Sequence record: OZ346219.1
Origin: a phage
Strand: one strand, 5' to 3'
DNA: 64,000 nt
Shown here: piece by piece, positions 10,324 through 59,285 of the stretch
How positions within the stretch are numbered: the first letter of the stretch is position 1
Layout: every line of letters starts with the position of its first letter
The notes under the pieces: generated by a model
Databases searched by the model: none
Told to the model about the DNA's origin: nothing
Seen by the model: only the letters and a program-made list of their open reading frames with translations
Made by a program: the position numbers and the translations under genes

Positions 10324-11222
10324 TAAAAGTCTCCGTAGTTAACCTGAAAACATTCTACACCAATTGAGCGATACATGTCAACCACTTGATCACGGTCATC
10401 TACCGCCAAAACAACATGATAACGCGGTGCAATTTCAGAGAAGAAGATCTCTTTCTTCACTTCATGATCAGGACGACGATCATTAGTTTCACGTTGAAAG
10501 TGATCACTCGGTTCAATACCCTGTTCACGCAACCATTGCAGAGTATCTTCTTCGCAAACATCCTCACGCCCTGAGCATGTAATGATACGATAACCATTAT
10601 CACGATACAGTTTAAGCATTTCGACCACTTGCGGACGAGGTTTATCTTCTTTGACCTTTGTCCAGTCAAACGGATGACGACCGCCCTTATCCGCTAATGT
10701 CCCATCAATATCAAAGATCACTGCCTTTGGCAGCATGGTATTCGGTTTGTATACTTCTTGACCCATATATTCCTGCATCAGATAAAATTGGTTGCGCAAA
10801 TGAGAAAGTGGAATTGCTTTCTCACCGCGATAGAAATTACGTTTCTTTAGTGTCTCAAATGATTCATTGAACACTTGTTCAGTATACACCGCGTTAAATT
10901 CTTTTGCAAGTTCTTTGTAGAATACACGATGTTTTTCTTTCAGGTTGGTATCAGAGATAATGATACTTAATCCGCGTGATAGAGTCTCACGAGCAATCAT
11001 TCTCTGAATAGACTCTACCAGCTTTTCTTTTTCCTTAGTATACTTGTATTTCAAATGTGAGTCAACACCAAACAACATAAGACGAAGATCATCACGATTC
11101 ACATTACGATAATTACTAAACCGTTTACATGTTTCCATCGCCCATGTAGTTTTACCGGACCCAGAACAACCAACGGTTAAAATCACTTCACATTTCGGCA
11201 TTATTTCTCCTTCGGTTTGCAC
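10323..11222 (-). CDS. pseT: polynucleotide 5'-kinase/3'-phosphatase
   Basis: 299 aa; N-terminal P-loop GCSGSGKTT and C-terminal HAD phosphatase motif VIFDIDGTLAD. Confidence 0.9.
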   Translation of the reverse strand: MQTEGEIMPKCEVILTVGCSGSGKTTWAMETCKRFSNYRNVNRDDLRLMLFGVDSHLKYKYTKEKEKLVESIQRMIARETLSRGLSIIISDTNLKEKHRVFYKELAKEFNAVYTEQVFNESFETLKKRNFYRGEKAIPLSHLRNQFYLMQEYMGQEVYKPNTMLPKAVIFDIDGTLADKGGRHPFDWTKVKEDKPRPQVVEMLKLYRDNGYRIITCSGREDVCEEDTLQWLREQGIEPSDHFQRETNDRRPDHEVKKEIFFSEIAPRYHVVLAVDDRDQVVDMYRSIGVECFQVNYGDF

Positions 11223-11533
11223 CGTTCCTCATTAAGTTCTTTTCGATAATAACACATGATCAACTTACTTTCAAGTGTATATCTCTTAATATCCGCAAGC
11301 CAGACTCTGAATTTTTGGGAGTCCTCCCACGACATAGAAACTCTAGGTTTACCGTCTATTGTATCCACTTTCAGGTCAATGTCAACTTTTTCTATTGGTG
11401 CTGGTAGTGGAGGATGTAATTTCGGTTCCTGTGAATAATGGTCCATTGTACACGAAGAAAGCGCAAATACAATAGGCAAAGCGAAGACATGGATTATGGA
11501 GGTCTGAAAATTCTTATGTGCTTTCTTAAACAT
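11201..11533 (-). CDS. putative o-spanin (outer-membrane lipoprotein)
   Basis: Start trimmed to Met41: MFKKAHKNFQTSIIHVFALPIVFALSSC (signal peptide with lipobox-like LSSC) followed by proline-rich PKLHPPLPAP; T4 pseT.2-like position. Confidence 0.5.
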   Translation of the reverse strand: MFKKAHKNFQTSIIHVFALPIVFALSSCTMDHYSQEPKLHPPLPAPIEKVDIDLKVDTIDGKPRVSMSWEDSQKFRVWLADIKRYTLESKLIMCYYRKELNEERCKPKEK

Positions 11534-11649: not shown

Positions 11650-11973
11650 TCATTTAGTAGCCTCCTTTAATTCTTCGGTAAACTCCTTAAATGAATCATT
11701 AAGCTGTTTCTCTACCAACTTTGGTTTTTGTGCTACTACATAGCCTCGTGTAGCGTCTTTCATTGCTTTGTTTTGTTCTTCCGCAAACTTAGTTCTTATT
11801 CCATACATCTCCTTTTGTAGTGAGTCTACGACCTTCATCTTTTCATCGGTCTTTTTCTTATACTCTGTAAATTCCTGATTCAGTCGATCTACCTCCTTTT
11901 TATTTTCCCACCACATATTACCACCTACCCCTAGCAACACAGAGATGATAACAATGTATATCAGCTTTGACAT
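11650..11973 (-). CDS. putative i-spanin (inner-membrane anchor plus coiled coil)
   Basis: Start trimmed to Met18: N-terminal TM segment LIYIVIISVLLGVGG then K/E-rich helical region; T4 pseT.3-like position. Confidence 0.5.
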   Translation of the reverse strand: MSKLIYIVIISVLLGVGGNMWWENKKEVDRLNQEFTEYKKKTDEKMKVVDSLQKEMYGIRTKFAEEQNKAMKDATRGYVVAQKPKLVEKQLNDSFKEFTEELKEATK

Positions 11974-37877: not shown

Positions 37878-38534
37878 ATGCAAGTTTCTGAAAAAGGGAA
37901 AGACTTTGCTATCTCAAATGTCCTGCGCGCTATTTTCACAACTAAAAGCACGGAGTTGCTCGTACTTCGTGTTTTTGCTGCCGTCGTGTTGTCCATATTG
38001 GCATTTGTCGTTTATAGTAAAAACGAGTTATTTGCGCTTTATAAAGAGACTCGTTATGAGACTTATGCTCACATTCTCCAGGTAGAGAAAGACCGCAATT
38101 TTGATAATGCAGCACAGGAGCAGTTACAGATAGTTCATGTGTCGGCTGATGCCGATTTTTCTGCTGTTTTTAGTTTTCGTCCGAAAAACCTAAACTATTT
38201 TGTTGATTTGGTGGCATATGAAGGAAAGCTACCACACACAATCGATGAAAAAAATTTAGGCGGATTCCCTATCAATAAAACGAGTGAAGAATATCGTAGG
38301 CATCTTTTAGGTAAATCATATTTTACCGATAAAGATTTCCAGTATATTCCATCAAGAGAAAAGAAATTAGAGAATATCGATATAGGTTTCATGTATTCTT
38401 GTCCTATATTCAATCTCGATAATGTCTATTCTGGTAGTATCGCCATTTCATGGAAGAATAAACCGGATATTGACATTGAGAATTTAGATACTCTTTGCAA
38501 TCAATCTGCCAGAATCCTCGGAAGGATTAGATAA
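37878..38534 (+). CDS. t: holin
   Basis: 218 aa; FSFRPKNLNYFVDLVAYEGKLP and MYSCPIFNLDNVYSG match T4 holin T. Confidence 0.9.
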   Translation: MQVSEKGKDFAISNVLRAIFTTKSTELLVLRVFAAVVLSILAFVVYSKNELFALYKETRYETYAHILQVEKDRNFDNAAQEQLQIVHVSADADFSAVFSFRPKNLNYFVDLVAYEGKLPHTIDEKNLGGFPINKTSEEYRRHLLGKSYFTDKDFQYIPSREKKLENIDIGFMYSCPIFNLDNVYSGSIAISWKNKPDIDIENLDTLCNQSARILGRIR

Positions 38535-40823: not shown

Positions 40824-41582
40824 TTACTTGCAAACGTATTGATCTACATCAATTGCGCCACCGAATGTAGGATGACGTTTTTCAAATCGAATAGTTCCGT
40901 CGTTTGGTTCGAAAACGGAGTATTCATATAGATCTTTCTTACCAACATTCTTATAAAACCCGCCTTTAGTCATAACGGTTTCTTGTACGTTTGCTTTGTG
41001 TACGTTGTATTCATCAATGTATACAAAATCAACCATCTTCCCATTTTTAATGGTTACTTTAAGATCTCCTGGTTGATTTCCATATTTGGCATACAGTGGC
41101 GCTTCTTTAATTTTTGTGGAAATTCCATCTTTCATACTCCACTCATAACGAACGGTGCATTGATAGGTAAAAGTTTCGACCTTCGGTTCTTCTACCACTT
41201 TTGCTTCCTGTTTCGGTTGTTCTTCTTCAACCTTCGCAGAAGTCTCTGAATCGCTTTCTGACGCGGTTTCTTCTTTAGGTAATACATTCATCAAGTTTTG
41301 GATTTGAGCGTTGTATACAGCCTCCAGTGGCTGAATCTGCCCGATATTGATCATTGTGTCACGAACAGTTTTATTCCAGTTTCGTTGCTCTTGTTTCAGA
41401 GACGGATCAATCTTAACAGCCTTAACATACACCTCATGAAGTTTAGAGTCCAGTGCGGAGATAGACTCATTAGCACAAATAAACTTCTCTGATTTGGTAG
41501 TAGCTTTAGCGCAATCAAAGGACGCAGCGTTAGCACCGAAAGCAGTAGCAGAAAGAACGATAGCAGCGATAATGTTTTTCAT
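40824..41582 (-). CDS. secreted protein with LprI/DUF1311-like N-terminal domain
   Basis: Signal peptide MKNIIAAIVLSATAFGANA; then CAKATTKSEKFICANESISALDSKLHEVY...QRNWNKTVR; E/K-rich linker; C-terminal domain ends in Cys. Confidence 0.5.
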   Translation of the reverse strand: MKNIIAAIVLSATAFGANAASFDCAKATTKSEKFICANESISALDSKLHEVYVKAVKIDPSLKQEQRNWNKTVRDTMINIGQIQPLEAVYNAQIQNLMNVLPKEETASESDSETSAKVEEEQPKQEAKVVEEPKVETFTYQCTVRYEWSMKDGISTKIKEAPLYAKYGNQPGDLKVTIKNGKMVDFVYIDEYNVHKANVQETVMTKGGFYKNVGKKDLYEYSVFEPNDGTIRFEKRHPTFGGAIDVDQYVCK

Positions 41583-41616
41583 AATATATTCCTCAGTGTT
41601 TTGTCTTGATGGGAGT

Positions 41617-41645
41617 ATCTTACTACTCCCTTAATCCGGTGTCAA
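41617..41645 (-). promoter_or_regulatory. early-type promoter cassette with palindrome across the -10
   Basis: TTGACA, 17 bp, TAAGAT; GGGAGTAgtaagaTACTCCC, identical core to 4460 and 14067. Confidence 0.55.
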
Positions 41646-41652
41646 CTACTTT

Positions 41653-41808
41653 TTAAATTTCTTCTACAGTAAAGTCTTCAATGTTGTTGTGCTCGGAGAA
41701 CGTTGCCAGACCAGCATTCCATGCATCATCCTCAGAGAAGAATACACCGTAACGTTCATATCCTTTAGCGCCTTCAAATTTAACCATTAATTTGTGAGTA
41801 TGTTTCAT
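41653..41808 (-). CDS. small hypothetical protein (about 51 aa)
   Basis: Start trimmed to Met30 downstream of promoter cassette 41840-41868. Confidence 0.3.
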   Translation of the reverse strand: MKHTHKLMVKFEGAKGYERYGVFFSEDDAWNAGLATFSEHNNIEDFTVEEI

Positions 41809-41882: not shown

Positions 41883-42143
41883 TTATTTTCGCCATTCACC
41901 TGAAACAATGAAGTTTGTAAAGTGATTGTGGTCCGTGATAATGTCATTAAGTACCATATGCGGATATGCTTTAGTGTAATCACGTTTACGATCAGTCATC
42001 CAACCAACGAAAGTCGGTGCAAAGTACGGCACACCGTCAGACGATGCCATATTAAACCCTTTGTCAGCCATAAATGCAGCCGCCCTAAGATTTTTAATTG
42101 AAGTAGTGCGACTAATTTCAAAAACTTTATCGGTAAAATTCAT
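41883..42143 (-). CDS. hypothetical protein (about 86 aa)
   Basis: Start trimmed to Met8. Confidence 0.35.
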   Translation of the reverse strand: MNFTDKVFEISRTTSIKNLRAAAFMADKGFNMASSDGVPYFAPTFVGWMTDRKRDYTKAYPHMVLNDIITDHNHFTNFIVSGEWRK

Positions 42144-42144
42144 T

Positions 42145-42354
42145 TTAAGCCCCCGCTCGTGCATTAATACGCATTTTCTGCATAGCCATGATCTGGCTTA
42201 CTGCTTCTTCTTTACGTTCTTGCGTGATAACGTGACCAGATTCCGCAAACTCTCCCGCAACTTCTTCTACAATCTCGCGAACTTGAGAACGTCCAAAGAT
42301 GCGGTTTCCTTCGTAGCTCATAAATTCAGTCACTACTTGCTCAATAGATTTCAT
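42145..42354 (-). CDS. hypothetical protein (69 aa)
   Basis: ORF behind promoter cassette 42387-42415. Confidence 0.35.
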   Translation of the reverse strand: MKSIEQVVTEFMSYEGNRIFGRSQVREIVEEVAGEFAESGHVITQERKEEAVSQIMAMQKMRINARAGA

Positions 42355-42386
42355 GTGATTCCCCTTCTTTCGTTTGGTATGGGAGT

Positions 42387-42415
42387 ATATTACTACTCCC
42401 GTTTCTTTACGTCAA
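42387..42415 (-). promoter_or_regulatory. early-type promoter cassette with palindrome across the -10
   Basis: TTGACG, 17 bp, TAATAT; GGGAGTAgtaataTACTCCC. Confidence 0.55.
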
Positions 42416-42422
42416 CTCGTTT

Positions 42423-42665
42423 TTAGAAATTTTTCGCTTCTTCTTCGGTCATCATAACCGCGCATTCGTGCATAACTTTGAAAACCGGATCAATCATGTC
42501 GAATGCTTCGCGGGACAGTTTACGAGAAGCGATTTTGATTGCTTCTACGTCTTCTACTACAGGAACAAAAACAGTTTTCAGTTCGTCGAGGACGGCAGCT
42601 TCTTTTTCATTCAGGAAGATCCCAGCGTCGTACAGTGCAACTTCGATAACATTAACTTTAACCAT
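42423..42665 (-). CDS. hypothetical protein (about 80 aa)
   Basis: Start trimmed to Met22 downstream of promoter cassette 42700-42728. Confidence 0.35.
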   Translation of the reverse strand: MVKVNVIEVALYDAGIFLNEKEAAVLDELKTVFVPVVEDVEAIKIASRKLSREAFDMIDPVFKVMHECAVMMTEEEAKNF

Positions 42666-42699
42666 TTTTATTTCCTCCAGTTCGTTTCGGTATGGGAGT

Positions 42700-42728
42700 A
42701 TAATACTACCGATGACCTTTGGCGTCAA
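42700..42728 (-). promoter_or_regulatory. early-type promoter cassette
   Basis: TTGACG, 17 bp, TATTAT. Confidence 0.45.
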
Positions 42729-42930
42729 CTAGTTTTTTGTTATTTTCGTGAAATTTTTTCGTCGCCTCATGTGCTTTTCGCTGGGCTTCTTGTTGTGCTT
42801 GCTGGCGTGCTGCCTCTTGCGATGCCATAACAGACGCATTTGCAGCAGTTACAGCCGCGACCATCGCTGCGGTATTAGCATTTACCGTACATGCACTAGC
42901 CAGCAAAGCAATCGCAATCATTTTCTTCAT
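42706..42930 (-). CDS. small secreted protein (74 aa)
   Basis: N-terminal signal peptide MKKMIAIALLASACTVNA; Q/A-rich helical remainder. Confidence 0.4.
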   Translation of the reverse strand: MKKMIAIALLASACTVNANTAAMVAAVTAANASVMASQEAARQQAQQEAQRKAHEATKKFHENNKKLVDAKGHR

Positions 42931-43097
42931 AGTTTCCCCTTTAGGTTATCTTCGACCTTCACCCATTCCGCGTATTCTTGCGCGGCTACTTTCGGATTTA
43001 GGCCATCTTCGTACATTGCATCAAGTAATTCTTTGTCGGTTGGCTTATACCCTAGATAAGCCTCCACCTGATTTTTCCAAATTTTATACCAGTTCAT
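42927..43097 (-). CDS. small hypothetical protein (about 56 aa)
   Basis: Start trimmed to Met24 to remove overlap with upstream ORF. Confidence 0.3.
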   Translation of the reverse strand: MNWYKIWKNQVEAYLGYKPTDKELLDAMYEDGLNPKVAAQEYAEWVKVEDNLKGKL

Positions 43098-43374: not shown

Positions 43375-43405
43375 CTTTGATTCTCCTTTTGTTTGGTATG
43401 GGTGT

Positions 43406-43434
43406 ATTATGCAATGTTGGATTCTGTAAGTCAA
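43406..43434 (-). promoter_or_regulatory. early-type promoter cassette
   Basis: TTGACT, 17 bp, CATAAT; directly downstream of terminator 43450-43476. Confidence 0.5.
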
Positions 43435-43449
43435 CAACTTTTTAAAATA

Positions 43450-43880: not shown

Positions 43881-44082
43881 ACTTTCCCTCCAAAAATTCT
43901 TTCATCAAATAGTCTATCGTTGCTCTGTGTTCTGGTGTGTTTGTTATCTCTGCTAACTTGTTCAGAGATTCAATAGTGATCCGGTTGGCTTCTTCCATAG
44001 TCTCAACGACCATCGGTACAATCTTTTTATTGTTGTACACGAAAGCCACATAACCGCCTTCTGGATATTCTTTCATAATCAA
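43873..44082 (-). CDS. hypothetical protein (69 aa)
   Basis: ORF overlapping gene 52 stop by 4 nt. Confidence 0.4.
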   Translation of the reverse strand: MIMKEYPEGGYVAFVYNNKKIVPMVVETMEEANRITIESLNKLAEITNTPEHRATIDYLMKEFLEGKYD

Positions 44083-45440
44083 CCCTTCTTAAGTTCTTTA
44101 AGATCTTTCTTATATTCCTTCATTGCGGTCGTCTTTGTCCAATACTCATATTCACTATGATGTTTATCGGCATCTTTGACCAGTCGATCATACTCTTCTT
44201 GAGTAACGCTATACAATGGCATAGAAACGAGCTTATCGGCATATGGGCGAAGTTTTTCATGTTCATTGATGGATTGCATTACCTCGGCCTTTTTCTTGCC
44301 CTGTAGCTCGATTTCGCCCTTAATTACGCGGTCTATAAATTCAGCTTTAGCCATTGCATAATTGTATGCTTCCAGTGTTTCCGCTTGCATCAATTCAATG
44401 CGTTTATCTACATAGCCTAATCGGATTTCGACGAATCGACGGATCAGATCGCTCGCTTTCTCGAATACTTCTACTAAACCACGTTCGTTAACTACTACGA
44501 TATTCTGGGCTACTAACTGCGTTAGTTTAAAATCCTTCATGATTTGCTCATGTCGAGCGGATTCATCTTCGCTTTTGAAATAATCGCGTTTCAGTGTTAC
44601 TTCAAATCTGAATCCGTCCTTAGAGCAACGGTCATTATACGATACAATCAGATCTTTTTCTTCCAGTGCATCCAGTACCGCTACATATTCTTCACGGTCG
44701 AACTTATAAGGAACTTCTGATATTGTCAGCTTAGTCTTGCCGTTTAGTTCATATGTACCCTCAAGAATCACACCATCGCGGTCATCACGAGGGATAACTT
44801 TACCCGTGAATTTCGGGAATTGAACACTAGGTTCTTTATCCAGTTTTCCGGCAAGTGCTAGCTCTGTGCATTCAATAAGGCTTTCCAGTGAATGCGGTAA
44901 AATGTCAGTTTTATACCCTGTAGCAATACCACTAATACCATTAGCCAATACCATTGGCACAACTGGCAAGTAGAACGCTGGCGGGATGTGTTCCAGATCT
45001 TCGTGCTTAGGTGCGCAATTCATATCTTTATAGATTTTAAAGAAGTTTTCATGCACACGAGCAAAGATATAACGTGCTGCACCTGCTTTCTGGACTAAAC
45101 GAGATCCGAAGTTACCTTGACCGTCAAGCAGTGGAGTATTATTGCTCCATGTATTCGCCATGAGTGATCCGGCTTCTACGGCATTAGTTTCCCCGTGGTG
45201 ATACCCCAACTCAGCAACACCAGATCCAATATCTGCCATCTTACGGAATTTCTTACGGTCGCCTTTACTCTTTTGAAGTGCGCACTCCATAACAAAGCGT
45301 TGTACTGGTTTAAGCCCATCTACCAATTGAGGAATCCCGCGTTCCTCGGCAGAATAGATCGCATATTCCTTAGCTTCATTATGTACAATGCTTTCAAGGC
45401 TGCGGTAAGTAACTGATTTATTCATCTTCACCTCATACAC
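44079..45440 (-). CDS. 52: DNA topoisomerase II medium subunit (GyrA-like)
   Basis: 453 aa; GyrA/ParC-like N-terminal region with active-site Tyr context; T4 position. Confidence 0.85.
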   Translation of the reverse strand: MYEVKMNKSVTYRSLESIVHNEAKEYAIYSAEERGIPQLVDGLKPVQRFVMECALQKSKGDRKKFRKMADIGSGVAELGYHHGETNAVEAGSLMANTWSNNTPLLDGQGNFGSRLVQKAGAARYIFARVHENFFKIYKDMNCAPKHEDLEHIPPAFYLPVVPMVLANGISGIATGYKTDILPHSLESLIECTELALAGKLDKEPSVQFPKFTGKVIPRDDRDGVILEGTYELNGKTKLTISEVPYKFDREEYVAVLDALEEKDLIVSYNDRCSKDGFRFEVTLKRDYFKSEDESARHEQIMKDFKLTQLVAQNIVVVNERGLVEVFEKASDLIRRFVEIRLGYVDKRIELMQAETLEAYNYAMAKAEFIDRVIKGEIELQGKKKAEVMQSINEHEKLRPYADKLVSMPLYSVTQEEYDRLVKDADKHHSEYEYWTKTTAMKEYKKDLKELKKG

Positions 45441-58730: not shown

Positions 58731-59285
58731 TCACCTCTCTTTATATCGTGATGTTCTGGTCTGACTCTTCCATATTCTTCTTATGGTTATCGTGTGCACT
58801 CCGTATATTATAGCAAGTTCTTTTACAGACGCAACACCCTGTTTAGACCTGATCTCTTCTACTTGATGGTCAGTTAACTTTGCGTTTCCGTGTGTTTCTC
58901 CATAGTTTTTGTTCAATCCTTCTTCTTTAGCGTGTATAAGATTTTCTCTTTGTGTTGTCCACTCAAGGCCATACAGATCAAAATCCTTTTTATCACCAAA
59001 TTTGTGATTTACTACAGGGTAGTTGTTTGGATTTGGTATAAATGCTTCTGCTAATGCCCTATGAATATAAACGCCGACGGTCTTTGGCTTGCCCGACTTT
59101 GTTCTGTTGGCGTAATCTCTTATATTACAAGAGACATAACCTTTTGTTATTTTAGTTGATCTGACCTTGCCAGTGGCTTTATTTCTTAGTTTACCATAAG
59201 AACTAATTTCATATTCTGGATACGATACGCCCATATAAACAAGGTCTTTCCATTCTTCTGGATGTTCATCACAATACCGTTTCAT
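58731..59285 (-). CDS. free-standing HNH homing endonuclease
   Basis: YEISSYGKLRN (NUMOD4-like) then HNH-like core VGVYIHRALAEAF...NHKFGDKKDFDLYGLEWTTQRENL. Confidence 0.7.
   Translation of the reverse strand: MKRYCDEHPEEWKDLVYMGVSYPEYEISSYGKLRNKATGKVRSTKITKGYVSCNIRDYANRTKSGKPKTVGVYIHRALAEAFIPNPNNYPVVNHKFGDKKDFDLYGLEWTTQRENLIHAKEEGLNKNYGETHGNAKLTDHQVEEIRSKQGVASVKELAIIYGVHTITIRRIWKSQTRTSRYKER

Follow-up and report, generated by a model that had tools for sequence, protein, structure and literature searches.

The window, by which we mean the whole stretch of 64,000 nucleotides of phage DNA analysed here (OZ346219.1), belongs to a Krischvirus, an RB49-like, T4-type coliphage, and the 2.5 kb around the gene of interest are 93-97% identical to 59 Krischvirus genomes. 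According to the ORF list of the window, the gene is a 252-aa reading frame plus stop codon on the minus strand (40824..41582) with an ATG start. It sits in the early hyperplastic region, with the holin gene t (37878-38534) on one side and the topoisomerase gene 52 (44079-45440) on the other. Its product is 100% identical to the proteins of Krischvirus LF73P4 and vB_EcoM_G5211, 99.6% identical to RB49p262, and aligns along its whole length with PHROG 14799 (E 2e-156). An earlier, sequence-only reading had described a secreted protein with an LprI/DUF1311-like N-terminal domain; what our analysis adds is the minus-strand assignment, a hypervariable and exchangeable C-terminal domain, the MliC/PliC-like fold of that domain, and the sharing of the gene with prophages of E. 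coli. The features of the locus are as follows.

40824..41582, minus strand: coding sequence, 252 aa, orthologue of RB49p262, phi1 ORF262 and JSE EpJSE_00265
41594..41658, minus strand: PeSL-type cassette directly upstream, with -35 element at 41645-41640, -10 element at 41622-41617 and overlapping stem-loop
41526..41582, minus strand: predicted Sec (SPase I) signal peptide, codons 1-19, MKNIIAAIVLSATAFGANA, predicted cleavage between ANA and AS
41274..41525, minus strand: LprI/DUF1311-like helical domain, codons 20-103 (Pfam PF07007), a near-invariant module with C24, C36 and QRxW
41181..41273, minus strand: acidic E/K/S-rich disordered linker, codons 104-134, the upstream recombination arm of the cassette
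40827..41180, minus strand: predicted 8-stranded beta-barrel, codons 135-252, with invariant C142 and C251; exchangeable cassette, here of type A

Signals for expression are readily found. The Shine-Dalgarno sequence GAGGAA (41589-41594) is placed 6 nt 5' of the ATG, and a promoter scan locates a sigma70-like promoter, TTGACA-17-TAAGAT with 10/12 consensus matches, at 41645..41617, where it overlaps the stem-loop GGGAGTA-N6-TACTCCC (41611-41630). A strong promoter over a stem-loop, directly upstream of the gene and repeated in the region, is the arrangement of the PeSL promoter/terminator cassettes described for RB49 and phi1 (PMC2839356), and the one before the gene is among the four copies of a 65-nt repeat family in this region. 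The copies (41594-41658, 42364-42428, 42677-42741 and 43383-43447) are about 65 nt long and 62-71% identical to the reference copy, and each combines a sigma70-like promoter with a stem-loop of the GGGAGTA...TACTCCC type before a small early ORF. Across both folded domains of the protein, the window and RB49 differ at 15 synonymous codons and no non-synonymous ones, and because of this purifying selection we reject the reading of the ORF as non-coding or an artefact. Two overlapping plus-strand ORFs (88 aa and 64 aa) are unlikely to be coding, as the synonymous-only differences fit the minus-strand frame. Searches with PADLOC and NCBIfam returned nothing meaningful.

By inspection, the N-terminus consists of K2, a 13-residue hydrophobic core (IIAAIVLSATAFG) and A-N-A followed by A at residues 17-19/20, and it holds no lipobox. 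These features support the cleavable signal peptide proposed earlier, and the protein is predicted to be exported by Sec and cleaved after ANA. The AxA↓ASFDC junction (arrow, cleavage site) is kept in distant homologues with differing signal peptides, as AQA↓ASFDC, VNA↓ASFDC and AFA↓ASFDC, and residues 1-20 are disordered in the AF2 model. Beyond the junction, Pfam PF07007 (LprI) matches residues 24-76 at E 1.4e-5 with 25.8 bits against a gathering cutoff of 22, a partial match that covers profile positions 1-71 of 106, or about the first two-thirds; homologues in prophages and other phages score 22-28.4 bits. C24, C36, Q66, R67 and W69 (Q66-R67-x-W69) do not vary among 20 relatives or in three distant homologues from phages, which bears out the cysteine pair and conserved tryptophan on which the DUF1311 assignment had been based. 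The model places four helices at residues 30-98. Only two cysteines occur in this domain, the second pair of the DUF1311 family being absent; PMC7933661 describes conserved cysteines in the family and four of them in orthologues of ScwA. A profile search with the domain matched 17 proteins, all of them short DUF1311 proteins. The similarity to DUF1311 is real and is not new, since automated annotation already applies an LprI-like label, with 'LprI-like N-terminal domain-containing' for the RB49 protein in UniProt and 'lysozyme inhibitor LprI family protein' for the E. coli copies in RefSeq. A weak DUF1311 match (E 0.2) had been listed by Nolan et al. (2006) for RB49 ORF 260c (PMC1524935), which is probably the RB49 counterpart of the 252-aa gene.

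The E/K-rich linker that had been noticed corresponds to residues 104-131, which have pLDDT values below 50 in the AF2 model and a net charge of about -7. Behind it, the separate C-terminal domain ending in cysteine also proved to be as described. The structure prediction once suggested for this domain (residues 135-252), run on the domain alone, yields an all-beta, eight-stranded barrel at pLDDT 90.5 and pTM 0.82, and the BFVD model of the RB49 protein, obtained independently, superposes with a TM value of 0.92. All of the types of this domain described below keep two cysteines, C142 in the first strand and the penultimate residue, C251, in the last. Judging from these cysteine pairs, each of the two domains is predicted to be oxidised to a disulfide-stabilised form.

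Structural comparison of the barrel gave 9.0 against the Cap15 barrel (3.6 Å, 94 of 108), 8.3 against Brucella PhiA (2.6 Å, 81 of 90), 7.4 against Neisseria ACP (2.7 Å, 80 of 103), 6.8 against Brucella PliC (2.8 Å, 79 of 97) and 6.7 against Salmonella PliC (2.8 Å, 75 of 85). An eight-stranded antiparallel barrel with a disulfide is what characterises MliC/PliC structures, and the predicted barrel has this form. Sequence comparison gave a different picture. A Pfam search with 14 C-terminal domains at E-values up to 10 found no match, including none to MliC (PF09864), and hhalign of the barrel against E. coli MliC (its sequence verified as PDB 2f09) returned a probability of 0.5%, that is, no relationship. 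A profile search of PDB with the barrel recovered only a spurious helical PhoU match, a profile search of 1.84 billion representatives only family members and repetitive proteins, and Foldseek with the full-length model against PDB nothing below E 1e-2. The SGxxY loop, which in MliC/PliC inserts into the lysozyme and contacts its catalytic residues (PMC8334348), is absent from every type of the barrel; type A has KGGFY in the loop between strands 4 and 5, which the other types do not conserve. Given the negative hhalign result and the missing SGxxY, we file the barrel as having an MliC/PliC-like fold and not as a member of the family. MliC, PliC and PhiA further differ from the phage barrel in that it shares no sequence homology with them, follows a DUF1311 domain in one polypeptide and is hypervariable. 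PhiA likewise lacks SGxxY and gave no inhibition in vitro (PMC8334348).

M. tuberculosis LprI (Rv1541c), to which PF07007 owes its Pfam name 'lysozyme inhibitor', has the same plan: it is exported, and its N-terminal DUF1311/LprI domain (PF07007) is followed by a small eight-stranded barrel of the MliC/PliC class (PMC7933661). The two proteins differ in that LprI is a lipoprotein, whereas the phage protein has no lipobox, and in that the LprI barrel is a recognisable MliC domain (PF09864), whereas the phage barrel has neither a Pfam or hhalign match nor SGxxY. A long acidic linker and cassette polymorphism are not described for LprI. The LprI-like architecture, the MliC/PliC-like fold and the carriage of prophage copies by gut or animal isolates of E. 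coli would all suit a fitness or virulence moron that, like MliC, PliC or Ivy, protects against c-type animal lysozyme in the gut. We consider this very unlikely, as SGxxY is absent, host lysozymes are too uniform to maintain many alleles, the benefit to a virulent phage is not clear, and E. coli already has MliC (PDB 2f09).

The most distinctive property of the gene is the contrast between its constant front and its exchangeable rear. Among 20 relatives, taken from a search of 5.8 billion clusters, residues 1-118 have a median pairwise identity of 96%, whereas the C-terminal domain has a median of 29% and a minimum of 9% and falls into eight clusters at 60% identity. The barrel thus exists as at least eight types, and these are exchanged as a cassette whose borders are exactly the linker and the stop codon. 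In DNA comparisons, Phi1, JSE and UPWr_E1 share 92-98% identity with the window on both flanks of the cassette; their homology to it stops precisely at 41181/41175, the end of the linker, and restarts at 40842/40825/40816, around the stop codon. Exchange proceeds by homologous recombination, with the conserved linker as one arm and the beginning of the downstream gene as the other. Between types, dS is 0.1-0.2 in the N-terminal part and saturated in the C-terminal part (above 1.5 or undefined), and we therefore regard the types as old alleles recombined onto a recent backbone. Values of dN/dS between cassette types are 0.15-0.33, indicating purifying selection in both domains; with these values and saturated dS, positive selection or recent rapid divergence of the barrel is unsupported. 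In the phage collection, type A occurs in 45 genomes and a type about 36% identical to it in 12, while the JSE type is too divergent to match.

Two explanations tying the cassette to the phage's own proteins were rejected. The lysozyme domain of gp5 is 97.7-100% identical among Krischviruses with different cassette types, so the polymorphism does not track, and is not explained by, their own gp5, though the constant N-terminal module could handle this constant lysozyme. Nor is the cassette likely to mask the phage's own receptor, as the gp37 tip varies independently of it: type A occurs with tips 65-100% identical to that of the window, and the Phi1 type with tips of 72-80%.

Masking of entry proteins used by competitors is a separate matter. 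The protein might block entry from inside, like T5 Llp or Cor, with the barrel binding the periplasmic face of an outer- or inner-membrane protein needed by competing phages and DUF1311 serving as a scaffold or anchor. T5 Llp is a small periplasm-facing protein that can close its receptor (PMC9586334), and the predicted periplasmic location and early expression of our protein fit such a role, as does carriage by prophages; discrete cassette types could match different host receptor or entry proteins, and the BFVD neighbours that share the barrel fold include a phage lipoprotein. Yet the phage protein has no lipobox and so is not membrane-anchored, no similarity to Llp or Cor was seen, and the independence of cassette type and gp37 tip makes masking of the phage's self-receptor unlikely. 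On balance we rate an entry blocker as improbable.

The front of the protein recurs elsewhere with other partners. Klebsiella Marfavirus PWKp16_00286 (250 aa), Aeromonas (Ceceduovirus) CC2_301 (239 aa) and lambdoid ev099 gp35 (232 aa), whose gene adjoins xis/int, are of similar overall length and carry the AxA↓ASFDC...C...QRxW module, with 36-49% identity in the N-terminal region. Their C-terminal domains, which have Cys pairs, are unrelated to the phage barrel, and PHROG 4675 has only the N-terminal half in common with the 252-aa protein. As a signal peptide and DUF1311 front thus stand before unrelated rears in other phage groups, a constant DUF1311 domain with a variable rear may be a general design.

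The gene is also carried by temperate phages. It occurs in 26 of 5426 complete E. coli genomes, always on the chromosome, and in all 26 it is the last gene of a prophage of about 35 kb inserted in hicB, at the att-proximal end and adjoining the truncated hicB; nine IMG/VR prophage contigs of 24-36 kb likewise have it at their very end. A scan of the GTDB species-representative genomes found no copy. The carriers are gut or animal isolates of E. coli. Prophage and window DNA are 94-95% identical over a stretch that begins 6 nt 5' of the ATG and ends near codon 125; beyond it they diverge, the prophage cassettes being of type D (12 genomes), B1 (8) or E2 (6), each with a sister allele in Krischvirus isolates or Krischvirus-sized contigs. 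The prophage copy has promoter-like and terminator-like signals of its own, identified as consensus matches only. In E. coli O55:H7 DEC5A, the ribosome-binding site and first ~21-25 codons of ORF261, the downstream neighbour of the gene in Krischviruses, are kept downstream of its stop codon (L006 8781-8860), followed by a premature stop, and this remnant points to transfer from a Krischvirus-type genome to the prophage. The hicB remnant of DEC5A (L006 9034-9342) is an antitoxin gene truncated by the insertion, with hicA intact. GC content is uninformative about the direction of transfer, the prophage itself being at about 40% GC. The sharing of the gene is a clear footprint of gene flow from virulent to temperate phage, and such carriage is as expected of a host-protective gene captured from a virulent phage.

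Protection of the host might also be directed against other bacteria. Secreted DUF1311 proteins are predicted to give immunity against cell-wall effectors acting in the periplasm, and Etsi4 reportedly counteracts the effector with which it is paired (PMC12981562, PMC8867033, PMC9796082, PMC12135965). EHEC Etsi4, Salmonella SED_RS06230 and ScwA resemble the phage protein in having a signal peptide and DUF1311, in being periplasmic and in their ties to peptidoglycan-cutting enzymes (PMC12981562, PMC8867033, PMC7933661). The 252-aa protein could accordingly be an orphan immunity protein against periplasmic peptidoglycan hydrolases delivered by T6SS or as bacteriocins, one that protects the infected cell until burst, or the lysogen, and whose cassette types match effector families. 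However, Etsi4 and SED_RS06230 adjoin their cognate effector genes, whereas no effector gene lies near the phage gene, which is surrounded by small phage ORFs, or near the prophage copy, which lies beside the hicB remnant and an uncharacterised ORF of 183 aa. DUF1311 immunity proteins known so far have one domain and 116-150 aa (PMC8867033), SED_RS06230 with 146 aa among them, and lack the added variable barrel; a virulent phage with a short latent period also has a more obvious need for exclusion of competing phages than for T6SS immunity. Immunity of this kind is in our judgement unlikely.

ScwA itself suggests another role. This periplasmic, disulfide-bonded protein, which is largely helical, 275 aa long and, unlike the phage protein, has its LprI/DUF1311 domain at the C-terminus, controls MltD levels (PMC7933661), and by analogy the phage protein might modulate host cell-wall enzymes, binding lytic transglycosylases or other peptidoglycan hydrolases and thereby stabilising the sacculus or tuning lysis timing, the latter having been among the functions first suggested. 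We hold this to be quite unlikely. Conserved host enzymes do not explain at least eight cassette types. Lysis timing in particular is disfavoured, as the gene is intact in prophages that have a different lysis system, without the T4-type holin/RI pair, and as lysis inhibition is already provided for in RB49 by rI and the T holin. Of the functions first suggested, inhibition of lysozyme and exclusion of superinfecting phages are the best supported, on circumstantial grounds only.

Among the periplasmic factors by which T4-type phages exclude superinfection, Spackle is to our knowledge the only one whose mechanism is understood. Spackle of T4 (gp61.3) is made early, resides in the periplasm, is disulfide-bonded and inhibits the tail lysozyme of gp5, and it confers superinfection exclusion and resistance to lysis from without (PMC7677548). 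Its homologues are present in 927 phage records, whereas tblastn found nothing credible in the window, the 41-61 interval or the rest of RB49. Like Spackle, the product of the gene studied here is small and comes from a T4-type phage; early expression is predicted from the sigma70-like promoter and PeSL, and Sec export to the periplasm and disulfide bonds are predicted from the sequence. The two are nonetheless unrelated in sequence and fold: Spackle is a single helical bundle of 75 aa, lies at another genomic position and has no cassette-type polymorphism, and hhalign of the N-terminal domain against it gave a probability of 0.06%, which means no relationship. The Krischvirus endolysin is a Peptidase_M15_4 and not a lysozyme of the T4 e type (RB49p102, L013 4719-5108), and the gp5 lysozyme domain has a single matching place per Krischvirus record, so that gp5 carries the only lysozyme domain of these phages. 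With an M15 endolysin, the phage could make a muramidase inhibitor in the periplasm and its own lysis would not be hindered; in T4, such interference is prevented by the selectivity of Spackle for gp5.

Taken together, these observations lead us to favor, with somewhat less than an even chance of being right, a role as an early periplasmic inhibitor of incoming cell-wall hydrolases that acts in superinfection exclusion or resistance to lysis from without. Transcription from its own sigma70-like promoter would give early expression; Sec export with cleavage after ANA would deliver to the periplasm two disulfide-stabilised domains joined by a flexible acidic linker, in which the constant DUF1311/LprI-like module may be combined with the barrel as a specificity cassette available in at least eight anciently diverged alleles. 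The protein would then bind and neutralise peptidoglycan-cleaving enzymes that reach the cell from outside, chiefly the lysozymes on the tail spikes of superinfecting phages, and the infected cell, or a lysogen with a captured copy, would gain superinfection exclusion and resistance to lysis from without. Such a protein would be analogous in function to T4 Spackle while having the domain layout of LprI from M. tuberculosis, and would leave the phage's own lysis undisturbed, the endolysin being an M15 peptidase.

The arguments for an inhibitor of incoming hydrolases are the order of DUF1311 and barrel, which is that of LprI (PMC7933661); the predicted immunity role of secreted DUF1311 proteins against cell-wall effectors; the precedent of T4 Spackle (PMC7677548); the Krischvirus background, with no Spackle in RB49 or the window, an M15 endolysin and a single gp5 lysozyme place; purifying selection in both domains; and the carriage of the gene by prophages, next to hicB, in 26 of the 5426 E. 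coli genomes. Against it stand the lack of sequence similarity to Spackle (0.06%) and MliC (0.5%) by hhalign, the absence of the SGxxY loop, the failure of PhiA, the closest match of MliC/PliC fold, to inhibit in vitro (PMC8334348), and a polymorphism that the near-constant gp5 lysozyme domain does not explain. According to PMC7933661, lysozyme resistance needs no more than the MliC domain that is also present in LprI, nothing links DUF1311 to this resistance, and deletion of the DUF1311-bearing scwA left lysozyme sensitivity unchanged. Klebsiella Marfavirus adds a further objection, as it carries Spackle together with a two-domain DUF1311 protein, and the two are therefore not simple substitutes. 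In PWKp16, the annotated Spackle gene (L009 107-421) and that of the 250-aa DUF1311 protein (L009 2501-3253) are about 2 kb apart, near the primase gene.

A wider proposal, which we put forward as possible though rather doubtful, is that the gene is a polymorphic phage-versus-phage locus common to virulent Krischviruses and temperate hicB prophages, with an ancient pool of cassettes circulating by way of the linker and downstream arms, and that lysogens have captured their predator's weapon and keep T4-type phages out with it. Cocktails for phage therapy include Krischviruses, and a prophage copy that excluded them would be of practical relevance for phage therapy. If the protein fills the role of Spackle, it would represent a second, unrelated solution drawn from inhibitor-type domains of bacteria, and its exchangeable specificity module would let one ask who excludes whom among co-infecting coliphages. 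Should it be an ordinary immunity protein or lysozyme-inhibitor homologue, its interest would be modest.

Several further observations concern the gene content of the window. Just upstream of the gene, the segment 41878-42151, with the 93-aa ORF 41883-42164, is present in Phi1 as ORF263.1 and absent from RB49, JSE and UPWr_E1; ORF263.1 has been described as unique to phi1 relative to RB49 (PMC2839356). From this distribution we conclude that the phage of the window is a mosaic of RB49-like and phi1-like gene content just upstream. A second segment of about 520 bp (42417-42939) lies between PeSL copies, lacks a counterpart in RB49, JSE, Phi1 and UPWr_E1, and holds ORFs at 42423-42728 (101 aa) and 42706-42930 (74 aa). 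The 74-aa product has no Pfam match; it has an N-terminus resembling a signal peptide or that of a lipoprotein (MKKMIAIALLASAC...VNA) before an Ala/Gln-rich body, and this N-terminus makes it a second candidate secreted protein of the early region. Farther away, two adjacent minus-strand ORFs (11201-11533 and 11650-11973) came up in a crude signal-peptide scan, one with a lipobox-like ALSSC and the other with an N-terminal transmembrane segment; they are probably the pseT.3/pseT.2 Rz-like spanin genes as annotated in RB49, and ordinary. Finally, a 184-aa ORF (58731-59285) adjoins the primase gene 61 in the 61-41 interval, where RB49 has only two small ORFs, and by eye its product looks like a free-standing homing endonuclease.
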